Source: a virus
Strand: one strand, 5' to 3'
Length of the DNA stretch: 64,000 bases
IMG/VR virus record: IMGVR_UViG_3300017917_002765
Location: 1 to 64,000 of that record
A model generated the notes under the pieces. That model worked only from the letters and a program-made list of their open reading frames with translations. It had not been told where the DNA came from and ran no database searches. Position numbers and translations under genes: made by a program. The number at the start of each line of letters is the position of its first letter. Position 1 is the stretch's first letter. This document shows positions 2,992 through 62,241 of this stretch, in pieces.

Positions 2992-3201
2992 TTAATTTAC
3001 TTCACGTTTCTTAACAATGAAATGAAGACCACACCAACCACTTTTTCTCTCATCTTCTGTTGTCTGTTCCTTCCATAATTTATCTGCTTCTTTATCTGCC
3101 ATATCTTTATCAAAAAATAATAATCCTGTTGAATACTCTACATCAGGTGATTCAACTAAACCTAATCCCACTACTTTTACTATTTCAAATATATTTTTCA
3201 T
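2992..3201 (-). CDS. Cassette-borne hypothetical protein
   Basis: 69 aa ORF between sites 5 and 6. Confidence 0.7.
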   Translation of the reverse strand: MKNIFEIVKVVGLGLVESPDVEYSTGLLFFDKDMADKEADKLWKEQTTEDERKSGWCGLHFIVKKREVN

Positions 3202-8977: not shown

Positions 8978-9700
8978 TTATACTTTACCTATTTTTGGTT
9001 GTCCATCCTCAATGATAAGATATTGTCTTTCATCTAGACAGTCTATTAATATTAAGTTTTCTTTATCAAGTATTGTCAGTTCTCTCACAGAAGTATGACC
9101 AACAACACAAACAATTTCTTCAACCATATTCTTAACCAAAGATTGTGGCCTAACCCATATCGGTCCTTGAGTAATATCATTACCACTTTGACTGAAGTTA
9201 TTACCCATAGAAAACCCAAATACTCTTGGTTGAAACTTCAAATAGTCATTAAGAATTTGTATCATCACTTCGTCAACCAACGGGTTTATGTTGTTTGGTG
9301 CCAATACCGTTTTAACCCATGTCTTGGTTAACCCAGCATGGCTAAAGAAAAACTTATCGTGCTTATAACAGATTTGAAGATGACCGTCTTGTATTGCCTT
9401 TTCCACATGTTGCCCTATGTCTATGGCATAACCAGCTTGATAACCAGAATAGGTTTCTCCAATACCACGTATATAATGGTAATCGTGATTACCAATCAAT
9501 GTAACCACTTTATCAGGATTGGCTTCTTTAAAAGCAATTATCTCTTTAAAGTTTTCAATCTGTCTGTTTCCGCTATATCCTTTATTGTGAGAGTCAAAAT
9601 AATCACCTACAAAAATAAAAAGGTCAACGTCTTTTTCCGCTTCAACAATCTCTTTCCATATAGACCTACCATGAATGTCACCCAAGCAAACTAATTTCAT
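8978..9700 (-). CDS. Calcineurin-like metallophosphoesterase
   Basis: GDIHG, GDYFD, GNHD, SHAG, GHT. Confidence 0.9.
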   Translation of the reverse strand: MKLVCLGDIHGRSIWKEIVEAEKDVDLFIFVGDYFDSHNKGYSGNRQIENFKEIIAFKEANPDKVVTLIGNHDYHYIRGIGETYSGYQAGYAIDIGQHVEKAIQDGHLQICYKHDKFFFSHAGLTKTWVKTVLAPNNINPLVDEVMIQILNDYLKFQPRVFGFSMGNNFSQSGNDITQGPIWVRPQSLVKNMVEEIVCVVGHTSVRELTILDKENLILIDCLDERQYLIIEDGQPKIGKV

Positions 9701-11526: not shown

Positions 11527-11970
11527 TTAAAAATTTTTCATCATTCTTTCAGTAACTTCAATTACTTTTTCATCATACCATTTATCAAAAAAGTATTTTA
11601 ACGTATGTAAGTTAGTGCGTTTGTCATTAGAATACATTGTTAACAAAGTAGGGTCTATATCTCCATATAATTTATGACGCACCACCCAACTAGTCGGCCC
11701 CAATTTTAATTCACAATCATTTAAGAATTTATCAAAATTATTAGAAAATGATTTTAATTTTTTATCAAACCAAGTGTCAAAATATTTAGTAACTTCGCTA
11801 ACACCACTAAACACTGTATTAACTTCTTTTTCTATATCAATACGGTTATACATATCTGGTTTACCCAAAGCAGCTATTTTAAATTCGGCTTCTTTTTTAG
11901 AATAAGTATGTACAATAACTGTATAGTATTTGTCTAAGTATTTATTTACCAAATATTCATCATCCGTCAT
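11527..11970 (-). CDS. Hypothetical protein
   Basis: 147 aa ORF. Confidence 0.65.
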   Translation of the reverse strand: MTDDEYLVNKYLDKYYTVIVHTYSKKEAEFKIAALGKPDMYNRIDIEKEVNTVFSGVSEVTKYFDTWFDKKLKSFSNNFDKFLNDCELKLGPTSWVVRHKLYGDIDPTLLTMYSNDKRTNLHTLKYFFDKWYDEKVIEVTERMMKNF

Positions 11971-13949
11971 ATTCTAAGTAACGTTAAATTGATGTTTTTC
12001 TTTTCAACATCAACTGACTTAACAACTACCATAACTTCGTCACCAAGCCTTATTTTTTCTCCAGTGTTCATTCCTTTTACGCAATAGTTATTCACATCGG
12101 CAGTAAATGAATCTCCACCAATGTCCACTAATCTCACAAGACCTTCACACTTGTTTTCTTGTATCTCAACAAATAACCCATATTCAGCAACAGAGGTTAC
12201 CAATCCTCTATATATCTTACCCACATTGTTATTCATGTAGATACATTGCATATACTTGATTGAATCCCTCTCAGCTTTCTGCGCTTTCTTTTCCCTCTCA
12301 GAAAGGTAATTACACTTGGTTTCCAACTTTTCTAATTTAGGTTCTGGTTTACTTTCAAGGTATCTAGCCAATAACCTATGAACCATAACGTCAGGATAAC
12401 GTCTGATTGGGCTTGTAAAGTGAGCATAGTCTTTGAACCCTAATCCATAGTGACCTATGTTTTGTGTTCTGTAATCAGCTTTCTGCATGGTTCTAACCAC
12501 AAGGTTATTAATCATGTTTTCTTCTGGCTTACCCTTTACATCTTCTAGCAATTGGTTTAGCGTTCTGGTTATTTCAACTGGGTCTTGTGTTTTAATCTCG
12601 TAACCAAATTGCTTGATGAACTCTTTAAGACTATTCAATTTATCTTCATCTGGTTTATCATGCGCACGGTTAACCATTGGTAACTTCTTATCATTGATGA
12701 ACTTTGCAACGTGCCTGTTGGCCAATAGCATGTATTCTTCAATCAATTTGTTAGCATCTTTGCTTTCCTTGAAAATGATGTCCACTGGTTTATTGTGTTC
12801 ATCCAACTTAAATCTTACTTCACTCTTGTCAAATGATATACTACCCTTTGATAAACGAACTTTACGCATCTTCTTCGCAATCTTATCCAAATGAATAATA
12901 GCGTTAGTTAAATTAGTAGCTTTAATTAAATTTTCATCTACTCTTTCATTGATACTAAAATCAACAAGACCAATTTTTTTATATAGTCTACTTAAACCAT
13001 TAAAATCTTTCCATTCAATTATTTCTTGAGCTTCCTCGTATGTAAATCTGTGGTCGGAGTGAATTATGGTTCTTCCAAACCATTCTTCAACTACATGTCC
13101 ATTGTGGTCCAATTTGAACACCGCTGAAAAGCATAGTTTATCTTCGTGTGGTCTAAGACTACATAAGCCATTAGAAAGCCTCTCAGGAAGCATTGGAACA
13201 CATCTGTCAACCAAATAGACAGAAGTACCTCTTCGGTATGCTTCCTTGTCTAATTCGGTGTCTGGACGCAAATAATGACTAACATCCGCTATGTGAACAC
13301 CAACCTCCATGAAACAATCAACCCATTGAACGCTAAGAGCGTCATCAAAGTCTTTTGCGTTTAATGGGTCAATGGTGAATGTCAATACATCACGCATATC
13401 CCTACGCTTATCAATCTCTGATTGTGGTATGGTTTCTGGTATTGCTTCTGATTCAGCTATTATATCAGCATCGAAATCATACGGTAAACCATATTCTTCA
13501 AGTATGGAATGAATCTCTGTTTCATGTTCACCAGAGTCACCAATGATACGAATTATTTCCCCATTAGGGTTTTTGGCATCATCTTTCCATTCAACCAACT
13601 TAGCAACAACTTTTTGACCATCTTTGGCTCCTAGTATTTTGCTTATCGGTATATAAAAGTCAATTGGCAGCTTATTACTATCTGGTATAAAGAAAGCGTA
13701 TCGTGGACTTATTTGAATTGTTCCTACAAATTCATCTCTGAATCTTTCGATGATTTCAATAACTTCACCTTCAATAGAACGGCCATTGCCTTCTATCACT
13801 CTTATCTTAACCGAATCAAGGTGTAATGCTTTATTTGTGTTGTTTTTGTGAATGTAAATGTCTTTTGGTAAATCCGTATTTACTAAGTAAGCGGAACCGC
13901 TTGCGTTCATGCTAAGTCTACCAGAAATTATATCACCTATATTAATCAT
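11967..13949 (-). CDS. rnr: Ribonuclease R
   Basis: TIDPLNAKDFDDA, HIADVSHY, HFTSPIRRYPD, C-terminal S1 domain. Confidence 0.95.
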   Translation of the reverse strand: MINIGDIISGRLSMNASGSAYLVNTDLPKDIYIHKNNTNKALHLDSVKIRVIEGNGRSIEGEVIEIIERFRDEFVGTIQISPRYAFFIPDSNKLPIDFYIPISKILGAKDGQKVVAKLVEWKDDAKNPNGEIIRIIGDSGEHETEIHSILEEYGLPYDFDADIIAESEAIPETIPQSEIDKRRDMRDVLTFTIDPLNAKDFDDALSVQWVDCFMEVGVHIADVSHYLRPDTELDKEAYRRGTSVYLVDRCVPMLPERLSNGLCSLRPHEDKLCFSAVFKLDHNGHVVEEWFGRTIIHSDHRFTYEEAQEIIEWKDFNGLSRLYKKIGLVDFSINERVDENLIKATNLTNAIIHLDKIAKKMRKVRLSKGSISFDKSEVRFKLDEHNKPVDIIFKESKDANKLIEEYMLLANRHVAKFINDKKLPMVNRAHDKPDEDKLNSLKEFIKQFGYEIKTQDPVEITRTLNQLLEDVKGKPEENMINNLVVRTMQKADYRTQNIGHYGLGFKDYAHFTSPIRRYPDVMVHRLLARYLESKPEPKLEKLETKCNYLSEREKKAQKAERDSIKYMQCIYMNNNVGKIYRGLVTSVAEYGLFVEIQENKCEGLVRLVDIGGDSFTADVNNYCVKGMNTGEKIRLGDEVMVVVKSVDVEKKNINLTLLRI

Positions 13950-28172: not shown

Positions 28173-28259
28173 TTGCGCCAATAGGATTTTAACCTATACC
28201 TAGGGTTTTTCAACCACCAAGTTCAAAGGGTAATACCCTGCCAGTTAGGCGATAGCGCA
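28173..28259 (-). tRNA. Atypical tRNA-Gln(UUG)-like RNA
   Basis: Acceptor tgcgcta/tggcgca; ctTTGaa within an enlarged loop; extra GAAA hairpin; T-loop ttaaaat. Confidence 0.55.
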
Positions 28260-28417: not shown

Positions 28418-28473
28418 ATGAAAATCCAACATTTCAAATAACACTCGGTCAATATTTTACTTGGTGACCAACC

Positions 28474-28516
28474 AAAAACAAAAAACCCTAGTCTGGTTTT
28501 ATTTAGACTAGGGTTT
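28474..28516 (-). terminator. Attenuator terminator of the Pro/Gln/Tyr/Thr/Gly/Lys tRNA operon
   Basis: AAACCCTAGTCT-loop-AGACTAGGGTTTTTTGTTTTT. Confidence 0.85.
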
Positions 28517-35964: not shown

Positions 35965-36011
35965 AACGTATTTTTATAATAAATATTTTGATTAATAAAG
36001 AAAGTCTAAAG

Positions 36012-36093
36012 TAGGGATAGAGGGACTCGAACCCCCACGCCTTTCGGCACTACATCCTAAGTGTAGCGTGTCTACCAATTCCACCATATCCCC
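36012..36093 (-). tRNA. tRNA-Leu(UAG)
   Basis: ctaca-ctTAGga-tgtag; long variable arm. Confidence 0.92.
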
Positions 36094-36149
36094 ATAGAGT
36101 GTAGTAGCTGGTACCTAGCTTGTGGTTACTACACATTTTATCCACTTTG

Positions 36150-36233
36150 TAGCCAAGGAGGGAATCGAACCCCCACGCCCTTTCGAGCACCAGATTTTGA
36201 GTCTGGCGTGTCTACCTGTTCCACCACTTGGCC
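36150..36233 (-). tRNA. tRNA-Leu(CAA)
   Basis: ccaga-ctCAAaa-tctgg. Confidence 0.92.
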
Positions 36234-36305: not shown

Positions 36306-36309
36306 CATG

Positions 36310-36395
36310 TACCGAGAGTGGGACTCGAACCCACACGACCTTTTAGGGTCACAGCATTTTAAGTGCTGCGTGTCTACCTGTTCCACCATCTCGGC
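36310..36395 (-). tRNA. tRNA-Leu(UAA)
   Basis: cagca-ctTAAaa-tgctg. Confidence 0.92.
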
Positions 36396-36455
36396 ATTAC
36401 GTTACAAAGGTACAAATAATTATCTTATTTTGCAAATCCTATGCAACTTTTTTTG

Positions 36456-36540
36456 TAGGTCCACCCAGATTCGAACTGGGATTATACTTCTCGTCTCCAC
36501 TTTGTAAGAGTGGGATGTTTAGCCATTACACCATGGACCT
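36456..36540 (-). tRNA. tRNA-Val(UAC), long variable region
   Basis: ccact-ctTACaa-agtgg; 16-nt variable segment. Confidence 0.85.
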
Positions 36541-36549
36541 ATTTTATTG

Positions 36550-36621
36550 AGTCCCCAATTGGATTTGAACCAATGTAAGAGATTTTGCAGACCTCTGCCT
36601 AAGCCACTCGACCATAGGGAC
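36550..36621 (-). tRNA. tRNA-Cys(GCA)
   Basis: gaggt-ctGCAaa-atctc; U73. Confidence 0.9.
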
Positions 36622-36623
36622 AT

Positions 36624-36654
36624 AAAAAAAGCCTATCTTTTTAGGATAGGCTTT
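36624..36654 (-). terminator. Attenuator terminator of the Cys/Val/Leu tRNA operon
   Basis: AAAGCCTATC-loop-GATAGGCTTTTTTT. Confidence 0.85.
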
Positions 36655-36682
36655 CTAGTATTTTCAGTTTATGATTACTTAC

Positions 36683-36757
36683 TTAACAAGCAAAGCCCAC
36701 CCAGTCTGCTACTAGCAAACATAAGACAAGGACTAAATTTGTTAATGACGTTTTCAT
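36683..36757 (-). CDS. Leader peptide sensing L/V/C (24 aa, not in ORF track)
   Basis: MKTSLTNLVLVLCLLVADWVGFAC; GGGTGGGCTTT pairs with AAAGCCTATCC. Confidence 0.85.
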   Translation of the reverse strand: MKTSLTNLVLVLCLLVADWVGFAC

Positions 36758-36786
36758 TGTTTTTTGTCGTTTTTAATAAATATACA

Positions 36787-36817
36787 CAAAGGTACAAAAA
36801 GTTTTTCAATTTGTCAA
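36787..36817 (-). promoter_or_regulatory. Promoter TTGACA-N17-TACCTTTG
   Basis: Same architecture as the other leader promoters. Confidence 0.75.
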
Positions 36818-36857
36818 GTTTTTTAAAAGAAAAAATGTATTTATAGATAAAAAGTGT

Positions 36858-37601
36858 ATGAAAATACTTGAAACCTATAATACCATTTTAAAAGAAGCTG
36901 AAATAGAAGCTTGTGTTAAAAAGTTTGGTTATGAGCTTTTTGGTGATGAATTAGGCGGCAAGGAAAAAAATACTGGAATTGAAAATAAGTATCTTGATGA
37001 CATACGAGATTTTACTGATAATAAATATGGTCAAGAAATAGACCCAGATTTTGTAAAAGCTATCAAAACATTAAAATCTTGCGCTCAACAATATCCAGAA
37101 ATTCTTATTCCAGACAAAACAAAAGTATATCGTGGTTTAACAATACCAATTAAAACATTTGTTGAAAAAAAGACATTCATAGATTTGAATAAACCCTTTC
37201 CTTACACATACACAGCCAAAAGTAAAATTCAAAGTTGGTCTACAAACTTTGATGCCGCTTCAATTTTTGGTAACCATGATATGCTAAATGAATATGCAGC
37301 TACTTTAAACATAGCTGATTATCAAACACCAGAAGCTAGAAAAAAATTATTGGGGGATGTAATTGATAATAATTTAAGAGCAGCTTTTGTTCTTGAGTAC
37401 CAAACCAATTCAAGCGAATTTATCTTTAAAGCTAATTACTTTAGAATTCTATCAAGAGCTTATCATGAAGACGAAGTTATTAGGTTGACAAACAAACCTA
37501 TTAATGTTTTGGCCAAATTTAATGACCATACAGATGTATTTTTAACTTACAAAAGCATTCAGCTTATACGTATTATTAATAAAGCAATATCTGAGCTTTA
37601 A
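36858..37601 (+). CDS. Putative ADP-ribosyltransferase-fold protein
   Basis: R-S-E-like motifs VYRG, SWST, EDEV. Confidence 0.55.
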   Translation: MKILETYNTILKEAEIEACVKKFGYELFGDELGGKEKNTGIENKYLDDIRDFTDNKYGQEIDPDFVKAIKTLKSCAQQYPEILIPDKTKVYRGLTIPIKTFVEKKTFIDLNKPFPYTYTAKSKIQSWSTNFDAASIFGNHDMLNEYAATLNIADYQTPEARKKLLGDVIDNNLRAAFVLEYQTNSSEFIFKANYFRILSRAYHEDEVIRLTNKPINVLAKFNDHTDVFLTYKSIQLIRIINKAISEL

Positions 37602-54278: not shown

Positions 54279-54358
54279 TACAGACGGAGGGACTCGAACC
54301 CCCATTTACAACTCCATTTACGGTTACTAAGTTCGTAGCTTAGCTCGGTTACGTCTGC
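54279..54358 (-). tRNA. Atypical tRNA-Arg(ACG) lacking a normal D arm
   Basis: Acceptor gcagacg/cgtctgt; only 8 nt before ctaag-ctACGaa-cttag; long variable region. Confidence 0.7.
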
Positions 54359-55456: not shown

Positions 55457-55517
55457 ATAATAACCAATATGTCAAATAACGTCTGACCAATATTTTATTT
55501 GGTGGTCAACCAAAAAT

Positions 55518-60861: not shown

Positions 60862-60930
60862 AACCCCTGATAGGATTTGAACCTATATCTCCCCCTAATA
60901 TTGGGGCTCTAGCAATTGAGCTACAGAGGT
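60862..60930 (-). tRNA. tRNA-like RNA with a shortened anticodon arm (loop aaTATta)
   Basis: Intact acceptor, D and T arms; anticodon stem only 3-4 bp; no U33. Confidence 0.55.
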
Positions 60931-60974: not shown

Positions 60975-61046
60975 TAGCGGGGGATGGAATCGAACCACCG
61001 ACCTCTAGGTTATGAGCCTAGCGAGCTACCACTGCTCCACCCCGCA
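60975..61046 (-). tRNA. Initiator-type tRNA-Met(CAU)
   Basis: 1:72 mismatch; gcggggtggagcag 5' end; ctagg-ctCATaa-cctag. Confidence 0.88.
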
Positions 61047-61052
61047 ATATTG

Positions 61053-61121
61053 TAGAAGAGAAAGGCCTTGAACCTTTATTTCCGCCCCCATGGGCGTTGT
61101 CTTTCCTTAGACGACTCCTCT
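61053..61121 (-). tRNA. tRNA-like RNA with an aberrant anticodon loop (Pro-like)
   Basis: Acceptor agaggag/ctcttct; cgcc-catggg-ggcg; T arm aaagg-ttcaagg-ccttt. Confidence 0.5.
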
Positions 61122-61130
61122 ATGTATCCC

Positions 61131-61308
61131 AAGATAGTTGTTCGTATTTATTTTACATGACTCCCGTTTACATGGTGATAATTTATTACTCGACTCCACA
61201 TCGAGGCAGATTTGGTTACTATGGTGCCGCTCTTTCGAGTTAGACCATAATGAGAGTCTAGCTTACTCCCTTTTTCCACTGTAGTTTTGTTTTTGCAGAA
61301 CCTATCTT
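61131..61308 (-). ncRNA. Candidate structured RNA
   Basis: Closing aagatag/ctatctt; internal tatgg/ccata and ctc-gaaa-gag hairpins. Confidence 0.45.
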
Positions 61309-61354
61309 TTTTGGATATTTTAGATTAACAAAGAACGTTGTGTTAATATATATG

Positions 61355-61385
61355 CAAAGGTACGAAGAAAAATTGTATTTGTCAA
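61355..61385 (-). promoter_or_regulatory. Promoter TTGACA-N17-TACCTTTG for the fMet cluster
   Basis: Same motif, followed by boxA-like GTTCTTTG. Confidence 0.7.
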
Positions 61386-61408
61386 GTTTTTTTAAAAAAA
61401 AATTTTTG

Positions 61409-61847: not shown

Positions 61848-61885
61848 GTTTTGACTAACCTTAGATAAGCAACAAAAGTCAAGTG

Positions 61886-62241
61886 TGGAGCATATGGGAG
61901 TCGAACCCATGTCTTGAATACTCTTCAAAAGCTTTCTACATGTTTATCACAGAATTTTCTAATTCTTCGAAATAGGTCGATGTGTCAACGATTAACGACC
62001 AAAACCGAATGGACTACCATTATGTCGTGGAACATACCACGATGAAGCGATTTATCGCTATCAGCTATATTAGGCTACAGCAAGCTCTCCAGCGAAACTG
62101 CAAGCAGCTTCGTCAAGGAAATTTTCAGATACAACAAAATCGTTGCCATTTAAAAAGTTCAATAGCCAGTTTAAAGTGCTTCCATCTAGCACTACATGCT
62201 TACTAATTACGACTATATTCAGTCAATACCTTTAATGCCCC
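61886..62241 (-). ncRNA. ssrA: tmRNA
   Basis: 5' GGGGCAT pairs with 3' ATGCTCC-A with G3:U70; T loop ttcgact; tag ORF 62147..62070 GNDFVVSENFLDEAACSFAGELAVA*. Confidence 0.92.

Follow-up and report, generated by a model that had tools for sequence, protein, structure and literature searches.

The stretch analysed here (the window) comes from a large freshwater phage that is uncultured and comprises 64,000 nucleotides, the first 64 kb of the 136,575-bp virus record IMGVR_UViG_3300017917_002765, and on its minus strand a promoter, a short leader open reading frame (ORF) and a terminator, together about 190 nt, stand directly ahead of tRNA genes for Cys, Val and Leu. We read this unit, with a probability of about 0.7, as a ribosome-mediated (leader-peptide) transcription attenuator in the style of trp and ilv that gates a phage tRNA operon. 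An earlier note on this DNA had proposed a leader-peptide attenuator with a Leu/Val/Cys (L/V/C) control region, and comparison supports the proposal: the ORF is found in all 18 distinct homologues, both helices of the switch covary and leader composition follows tRNA content. The basis is computation and comparison, covering the ORF, its composition, the terminator, an alternative pairing, conservation, covariation and geometry, and from these we infer translation of the ORF, ribosome stalling and regulated read-through. The phage probably expresses these Cys, Val and Leu tRNAs for the most part when translation of the corresponding codons is slow. The parts of the unit and the genes behind it are as follows.

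36787-36817, minus strand: main promoter TTGACA-N17-TACCTTTG, a strict promoter match, within the box AAAACTTGACAAAT...GTACCTTTG
36683-36757, minus strand: leader ORF of 24 codons plus TAA, peptide MKTSLTNLVLVLCLLVADWVGFAC
36710-36736, minus strand: control codons 8-16, LVLVLCLLV, all Leu, Val or Cys
36704-36720, minus strand: hairpin P1 (ORF nt 38-54, codons 13-18), adjoining strand X
36692-36702, minus strand: strand X, GGGTGGGCTTT (GGGUGGGCUUU), the antiterminator strand, ending 6 nt before the stop codon
36624-36654, minus strand: intrinsic terminator (5' arm 36654-36645, loop 36644-36638, 3' arm 36637-36628, U-run 36630-36624)
36549-36621, minus strand: tRNA-Cys(gca), the first gene behind the terminator
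36455-36540, minus strand: tRNA-Val(tac), 86 nt, with a long variable arm
36309-36395, minus strand: tRNA-Leu(taa)
36149-36233, minus strand: tRNA-Leu(caa)
36011-36093, minus strand: tRNA-Leu(tag)

Transcription would begin at the strong promoter (36817-36787), and the 24-codon leader would be translated as it is made. Smooth reading of codons 8-16 would bring the ribosome to the ORF end, where it would cover X (36702-36692); with X covered, the terminator hairpin (36654-36628 plus U7) would form and RNA polymerase would halt 2 nt before tRNA-Cys. When charged Leu, Val or Cys tRNAs are scarce, the ribosome would linger on the control codons and leave X uncovered. Free X would pair with the 5' arm of the terminator once this had emerged, no terminator would form, and polymerase would read through into tRNA-Cys, tRNA-Val and the three tRNA-Leu genes. 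The fresh tRNAs would ease the stall and close a negative feedback loop.

Leader composition mirrors the tRNA genes downstream

Behind the promoter, the minus strand carries an A-rich 5' leader, the 24-codon ORF, a 28-nt spacer, the terminator and then the Cys, Val and three Leu tRNA genes. The ORF reads ATG AAA ACG TCA TTA ACA AAT TTA GTC CTT GTC TTA TGT TTG CTA GTA GCA GAC TGG GTG GGC TTT GCT TGT TAA; its length of 24 aa and the sequence of codons 8-16 (TTA GTC CTT GTC TTA TGT TTG CTA GTA) are exactly as the earlier note gave them. A nine-residue run of nothing other than Leu, Val and Cys was found in one of 530 small ATG ORFs of the genome, where the runner-up run has six residues, and in none of the 36,449 nine-residue windows taken from genome ORFs of at least 100 aa.

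The promoter box AAAACTTGACAAAT...GTACCTTTG heads all five tRNA transcription units of the genome, and the 12-mer AACTTGACAAAT has five copies, each on the minus strand and each ahead of a tRNA block. At four of these copies, all in the window, the layout of short ORF, terminator and tRNAs recurs.

Unit 1: leader MKTTTTYTGKQYPQGKQG..., then Pro, Gln, Tyr, Thr, Gly and Lys tRNAs
Unit 2: leader MRTFANIFDFAFEFAAEAD..., then Phe, Glu, Asp and Ala tRNAs
Unit 3: the LVLVLCLLV leader, then Cys, Val and Leu tRNAs
Unit 4: leader MRNINIHINSISMWRRNSN..., then Trp, His, Ile, Asn and Arg tRNAs

Over leader residues 2-18, the residues that belong to the tRNA set of the leader's own block number 17, 13, 10 and 13 of 17 in the four units, compared with 0-3 of 17 for the set of any other block. 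Each of the four leaders is the top outlier for its own tRNA set among the 530 small ATG ORFs.

This agreement extends to other lineages. An automatic scan of all loci fetched from related phages gave 56 units of promoter, short ORF, terminator and tRNAs, 37 of them distinct, with three leader classes outside those of the window.

L086: an I/E/A/G/Y leader, ...IINIEAIGYAYEAG..., then Glu, Tyr, Glu, Ile, Gly and Ala tRNAs
L106: an R/E leader, ...RIERREE..., then Glu, Arg, Glu and Arg tRNAs
L112: an L/V/F/R leader without Cys, then Phe, Phe, Val, Leu, Val, Val, Arg and Leu tRNAs, with no tRNA-Cys

The L112 leader is related to the L/V leader; along with the change in its tRNA set, Cys has dropped out of it and Phe and Arg have been added, and it has its own fitting X and arm (-14.7 kcal/mol). 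When leaders of the seven classes were assigned to tRNA sets in all 5040 permutations, the true assignment was the single best.

Two further arrangements were seen among these loci. In L056 two leaders of the Trp/His type stand in tandem, at 8980 and 10523. In L074 (about 3087-3117, the same locus as L091) the promoter of a Phe/Glu/Asp block lies 59 nt before tRNA-Phe with no leader; gating thus does not extend to all blocks of all relatives.

The kinds of Leu codon in the leader had been proposed to report on the three Leu isoacceptors encoded downstream, and this finer claim is unsupported, the match being no better than chance. Genome usage of Leu codons is 51% TTA, 20.5% TTG, 17.5% CTT and 8.3% CTA, from which simple arithmetic gives about 87% of random six-Leu sets holding both UUR and CUN codons. 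TTG shows no link to tRNA-Leu(caa): among 18 leaders, three have both, eight have TTG only, one has the caa tRNA only and six have neither. A CTA codon is present in all 18 leaders, where it sits in the loop region of the conserved hairpin P1; RNA structure can explain this conservation. GTT is avoided, accounting for 3 of 80 Val codons in leaders compared with 59% in the genome, and since the Val codons lie in paired RNA segments we draw no conclusion on tRNA sensing from it.

Terminator, antiterminator and their covariation in homologues

The terminator hairpin (AAAGCCTATC/GATAGGCTTT with U7) has a calculated energy of -15.9 kcal/mol, and its U-run ends 2 nt short of tRNA-Cys. The earlier note had pointed out a pairing between 36702-36692 and the terminator arm at 36654-36644, and this is confirmed: X (GGGTGGGCTTT) and AAAGCCTATCC form 11 bp, two of them G-U, at -16.0 kcal/mol by RNAduplex. 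Pairing as good with the 5' arm of unit 3 was reached by 2 of 6068 45-nt windows of the whole genome, a null set that kept the locus's own strands in. The antiterminator strands of units 1 and 4 are also rare by this measure (12 and 19 of 6068 windows), and the candidate of unit 2 is not significant (669 of 6068).

Homologues were reached by several routes. The 426-aa protein beside the Trp/His block led to related uncultured phages with a transfer-messenger RNA (tmRNA) and tRNA blocks. BLAST in the records of these relatives found two homologues of the L/V/C leader, and a pattern scan in which part of the leader was fixed found four more. As an unbiased set we took the 32 loci recovered with a conserved ORF of about 101 aa, which in the relatives lies just downstream of tRNA-Cys, as bait; the L/V/C leader unit stands directly ahead of tRNA-Cys in 20 of these. 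The 20 loci, the window and one BLAST match make 22 units, of which 18 are distinct. The 247-aa protein of the divergent neighbouring gene (36858-37601), used as query, had no match in viral_contigs.

The architecture is constant across the 18 distinct units. Each has an ORF of 24-26 codons with an L/V/C-rich core, an X that ends 4-9 nt ahead of the stop codon, a stop-to-terminator distance of 21-29 nt, a terminator of -14.2 to -19.4 kcal/mol and a U-run that ends 2-16 nt short of tRNA-Cys. In 16 of the 18 the longest stretch of L/V/C codons closes at codon 16-19, one to three codons before X. A Ser codon breaks the core in L099 and L107, and several lineages of the wider set have it broken by Ser or Asn. 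In the first six aligned sequences all substitutions in codons 10-16 remain within Leu, Val and Cys, including CTT/TTA swaps that take two base changes, and insertions and deletions in the ORF are mostly multiples of three in the MAFFT alignment. The earlier note had named the outcome that would speak against it, homologues in which the ORF is a truncated secreted protein with no conserved terminator pairing; the homologues keep the pairing, and no such protein was found.

Covariation was scored across 16 sequences, in a MAFFT alignment made without regard to structure. The terminator helix has 11 pairs, seven of them compensatory, with 93.2% of alignment cells paired, and the antiterminator helix between X and the 5' arm has nine pairs, five of them compensatory, with 89.6% paired. 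In hairpin P1 two of six pairs are compensatory (AU/GC in four rows, UA/CG in two) and 97.9% of cells are paired; P1 may possibly act as a pause hairpin for RNA polymerase. Sliding the partners by 1-3 columns as a control left 31-54% of cells paired. The observed covariation score was reached by none of 500 shuffles, a test that overstates independence since the homologues are mutually related.

Each X also fits its own terminator arm best. Duplexes between X and the 5' arm average -12.69 kcal/mol for cognate and -10.14 kcal/mol for non-cognate combinations, and the cognate mean was reached in none of 20,000 permutations. In L083 X is UGGUCGGACU and the arm AGUCCGA, in L084 X is UUUCGGG and the arm CCCGAAG, and each X fits its own arm only. 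With their wholly different strands, these two are the clearest independent events.

The gated operon of the relatives includes two conserved ORFs (one of 106-115 aa, the other of about 101 aa), placed between tRNA-Cys and tRNA-Val, that the window does not have. A Pfam search with these two ORFs gave nothing above threshold. The insert was located in four loci.

L074, 1081-1672: two-ORF insert between tRNA-Cys and tRNA-Val
L075, 5545-6175: the same insert
L076, 6194-6836: the same insert
L077, 6060-6672: the same insert

Ribosome position and the proposed switch

The geometry of the switch was examined in six homologues by folding the nascent transcript with an imposed ribosome footprint. With the A site at codons 6-16, X captures the 5' arm upstream, before the 3' arm exists, with a probability of 0.54-0.99 (0.77-0.99 through codon 15). 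Once the A site has reached codon 20 or lies further on, or is at the stop codon, this capture has a probability of at most 0.16. All six sequences show this behaviour. These constrained folds place the switch point between A-site codons 16 and 20, just past the L/V/C run. The run thus ends at the last positions where a stalled ribosome leaves X free.

Promoters

The whole genome of 136,575 bp has only 12 strict promoter matches. All are minus-strand sites, and the main promoter is among them. So is the second promoter that the earlier note had seen at TACCTTTG near 36405-36412, which is present and a real match to the phage promoter consensus.

36405-36435, minus strand: internal promoter-like site TTGCAA-N17-TACCTTTG, with TACCTTTG at 36412-36405, 9 nt before tRNA-Leu(taa)

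One relative has a comparable site ahead of tRNA-Leu(tag). The promoters agree with the TAnnTTTG consensus, which we take to indicate a host that is probably of the Bacteroidota type. Scanning viral_contigs with the promoter pattern CTTGACAAAT-N14-GTACNTTTG found no relatives and one chance match inside a coding region; the same scan of metagenome_contigs gave 48 loci, one with tRNAs directly after the promoter and none with a leader unit.

The fifth promoter copy (61388-61358, minus strand) is followed by about 300 nt of non-coding sequence and then tRNA-Met, with no leader ORF (window 61046-61388). The stretch of about 300 nt is kept in the relatives L051, L054, L057, L060 and L062 and is a candidate structured RNA. 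Rfam at gathering thresholds assigned no family to 61046-61388.

Points against the proposed attenuator and alternative explanations

Besides the relatedness of the homologues, a number of observations weigh against the attenuator. Twelve of the 32 bait loci lack the L/V/C leader, having another tRNA context or no tRNA-Cys. The G-rich X of unit 3 finds about equally good partners in all four terminator arms of the window; a within-window duplex matrix of leaders and terminator arms was not cleanly diagonal and gave way, as evidence, to the genome-wide null and the duplexes of the homologues. Others concern the transcript, its folding, the internal promoter and the peptide.

The first set comes from the folds. 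X is free even without a ribosome in four of the six homologues, with an antiterminator probability of 0.77-0.86, so the default may be read-through and the signal may be general translation instead of specific tRNAs. A protector helix between codons 9-12 and X, which would hold X back, forms in only two of the six folds. It shows no covariation: 429-482 of 500 shuffles reach each observed measure. Both findings favour an otherwise identical switch that senses translation in general, such as ribosome availability, slowed elongation or translation-targeting stress, and not the supply of Leu, Val and Cys tRNAs. The nearest published functional parallel points the same way, since the long tRNA array of Anabaena answers general translational stress in what is available of its description (PMC8421152; PMC10272220). 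A general sensor has no need of leaders that mirror the tRNAs of their own block, yet they match in four of four units of the window and in other lineages, and we regard this explanation as unlikely.

In the full transcript at equilibrium the terminator is preferred (probability about 1) in four of the six homologues at any ribosome position, so antitermination by the proposed attenuator would have to be kinetic. The same preference would suit a hairpin that acts constitutively as a partial terminator, or serves in RNA processing or stability, and merely holds leader and tRNA transcripts at a constant ratio, with the alternative pairing non-regulatory. Transcript data give no sign of regulated read-through either. 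In X21, the only RNA run that yielded part of the window, one contig covers 36097-36344 with two differences, short pieces lie on the tRNAs, and two short pieces fall on the divergent upstream ORF (36916-36958 and 37316-37351); no contig covers the leader, which shows neither expression nor absence. For a variant DNA contig in X2 (36682-36986; 51 differences, 5 gaps), the differences among those listed all lie upstream of 36736, and the contig was not counted as evidence. The compensatory changes at five of nine pairs between X and the 5' arm are hard to explain without selection on that helix, and the cognate-only pairing in L083 and L084 also speaks against a fixed terminator, which makes this explanation hardly probable at all.

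With the internal promoter 9 nt ahead of tRNA-Leu(taa), some expression of the Leu tRNAs in this phage may bypass the switch. Taken alone, the L/V/C-rich 24-mer also looks like a small membrane peptide. Together these allow another account: the ORF would code for a short hydrophobic peptide of membrane or signal type and have a terminator of its own, the tRNAs would come from unregulated leak-through and from the internal promoter, and the peptide would match the tRNAs only incidentally. The conserved length and a hydrophobic core between polar residues would fit such a peptide. Against it, the three sister leaders of the window are not hydrophobic, yet they have the same promoter, layout and terminator; the C-terminal part of the ORF covaries with the terminator arm at the RNA level; the L112 leader changes its Cys, Phe and Arg content together with its tRNA set; and four of six relatives examined have no internal promoter within the tRNA block. 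We consider this account highly improbable.

Relation to known systems

Leader-peptide attenuation is a textbook mechanism for amino-acid operons, and control of tRNA genes is generally assumed to lie at the promoter. The enterobacterial branched-chain attenuators ilvGMEDA/ilvL, ilvBN/ivbL and leu/leuL have multivalent leader peptides and share with the phage unit a short translated Leu/Val-rich leader, an intrinsic terminator, a ribosome-dependent antiterminator and several amino acids per leader. They differ in controlling bacterial biosynthesis enzymes, whereas the phage unit stands before tRNA genes (Cys, Val, Leu), includes Cys among its control codons and has no sequence in common with them. 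The pheST operon of Escherichia coli, with its pheM leader, likewise uses leader-peptide attenuation to control a part of the translation apparatus tied to the sensed tRNA; its product is an aminoacyl-tRNA synthetase and one amino acid is sensed, whereas the phage unit would control the tRNAs themselves. In place of the usual targets of attenuators, genes for amino-acid biosynthesis or aminoacyl-tRNA synthetases, five tRNA genes lie downstream here, and the unit would therefore be a variant of leader-peptide attenuation.

Rfam at gathering thresholds assigned no family to the leader. Its best non-tRNA match is Phe_leader (RF01859), the model of a leader-peptide attenuator, to which 36622-36747 aligns over the whole model (1-125 of 125), consistent with the same layout; at 28.9 bits against a gathering threshold of 55 (E = 0.0048) it is not a member, and its control codons and regulated genes differ. 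In T-box riboswitches, too, tRNA status decides between terminator and antiterminator ahead of translation-related genes. T-boxes bind tRNA directly and need no translation, whereas the phage leader has a conserved ORF, and no T-box match was found in Rfam at gathering over the window, nor at E values up to 10 over 36560-36860.

The trn operon of Anabaena sp. PCC 7120, a long tRNA array, is induced under translational stress, according to the portions available of PMC8421152 and PMC10272220. There, as would be the case here, accessory tRNA genes are silent until translation is impaired. The operon is bacterial, and the same portions place its control at the promoter, where the repressor TrcR binds direct repeats, and not in attenuation; in PMC8421152 the terms 'attenuat', 'leader peptide' and 'terminator' occur 0 times. 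The available part of a survey of bacterial attenuators (PMC2965389) makes no mention of tRNA genes. A full-text literature search for control of tRNA genes or phage tRNAs by leader peptides or attenuators found no published case, supplementary files lying outside the search.

If the attenuator is real, a translating ribosome in these phages measures tRNA supply directly and feeds back on tRNA transcription block by block, by means of a compact, modular and codon-specific sensor of about 190 nt. It would help to explain at what point and for what reason phages express tRNA genes, and would tie phage tRNAs to the depletion of host tRNAs in a way open to test. A possible trigger for switching of the tRNA blocks is a host defence that degrades or depletes tRNAs, or host shut-off. 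The chances seem to us evenly balanced that an entire clade of large freshwater phages has closed-loop control of tRNA supply, each tRNA operon being gated by a leader whose codons co-evolve with its tRNAs; the phage would thereby poll the decoding of each amino-acid group on its own and transcribe no tRNA blocks except those missing from the infected cell. The family of units is large, with the 37 distinct members in the fetched loci, and its natural variation already acts like a mutagenesis series.

Genome context and further observations

The window holds 29 tRNA genes and one tmRNA (61885-62241, the phage's own), all on the minus strand. Genes of phage type surround the tRNA blocks and encode an RNase II/R-like protein, a DNA ligase, AAA ATPases, DUF4326 and T5orf172. 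The RNase II/R-family protein, with RNB, CSD2 and S1 domains, is encoded at 11967-13949 (minus strand) alongside the tRNA blocks. A blastn search of GenBank phages at the 'distant' setting matched generic tRNA stretches only.

The long variable arm and the length of 86 nt are unusual for a tRNA-Val and were seen in tRNA-Val(tac) at 36455-36540 (minus strand). A stretch 90.5% identical to this gene lies in the tRNA array of the 735-kb uncultured phage LR756501, and further tRNAs of 85-91 nt in the window are Lys(ttt), Thr, Asn, Ile and Asp(atc). Three spots on the minus strand (28173-28259, 54279-54358 and 60862-60930) are tRNA-like by Rfam (33-46 bits) and were missed by ARAGORN at its defaults; relaxed settings call them an intron-containing Gln, a Leu(tag) and a tRNA of undetermined anticodon. 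The relatives L057, L060 and L062 have a tRNA with anticodon CTA (labelled 'Pyl' by ARAGORN), possibly an amber suppressor, and the window has none.

Units 1 and 4 of the window, unlike units 2 and 3, have similar elements of about 60 nt (28420-28480 and 55457-55517, minus strand) that follow the U-run and precede the first tRNA. The two copies show an apparent compensatory swap, GGTCA...TGACC in place of GACCA...TGGTC.

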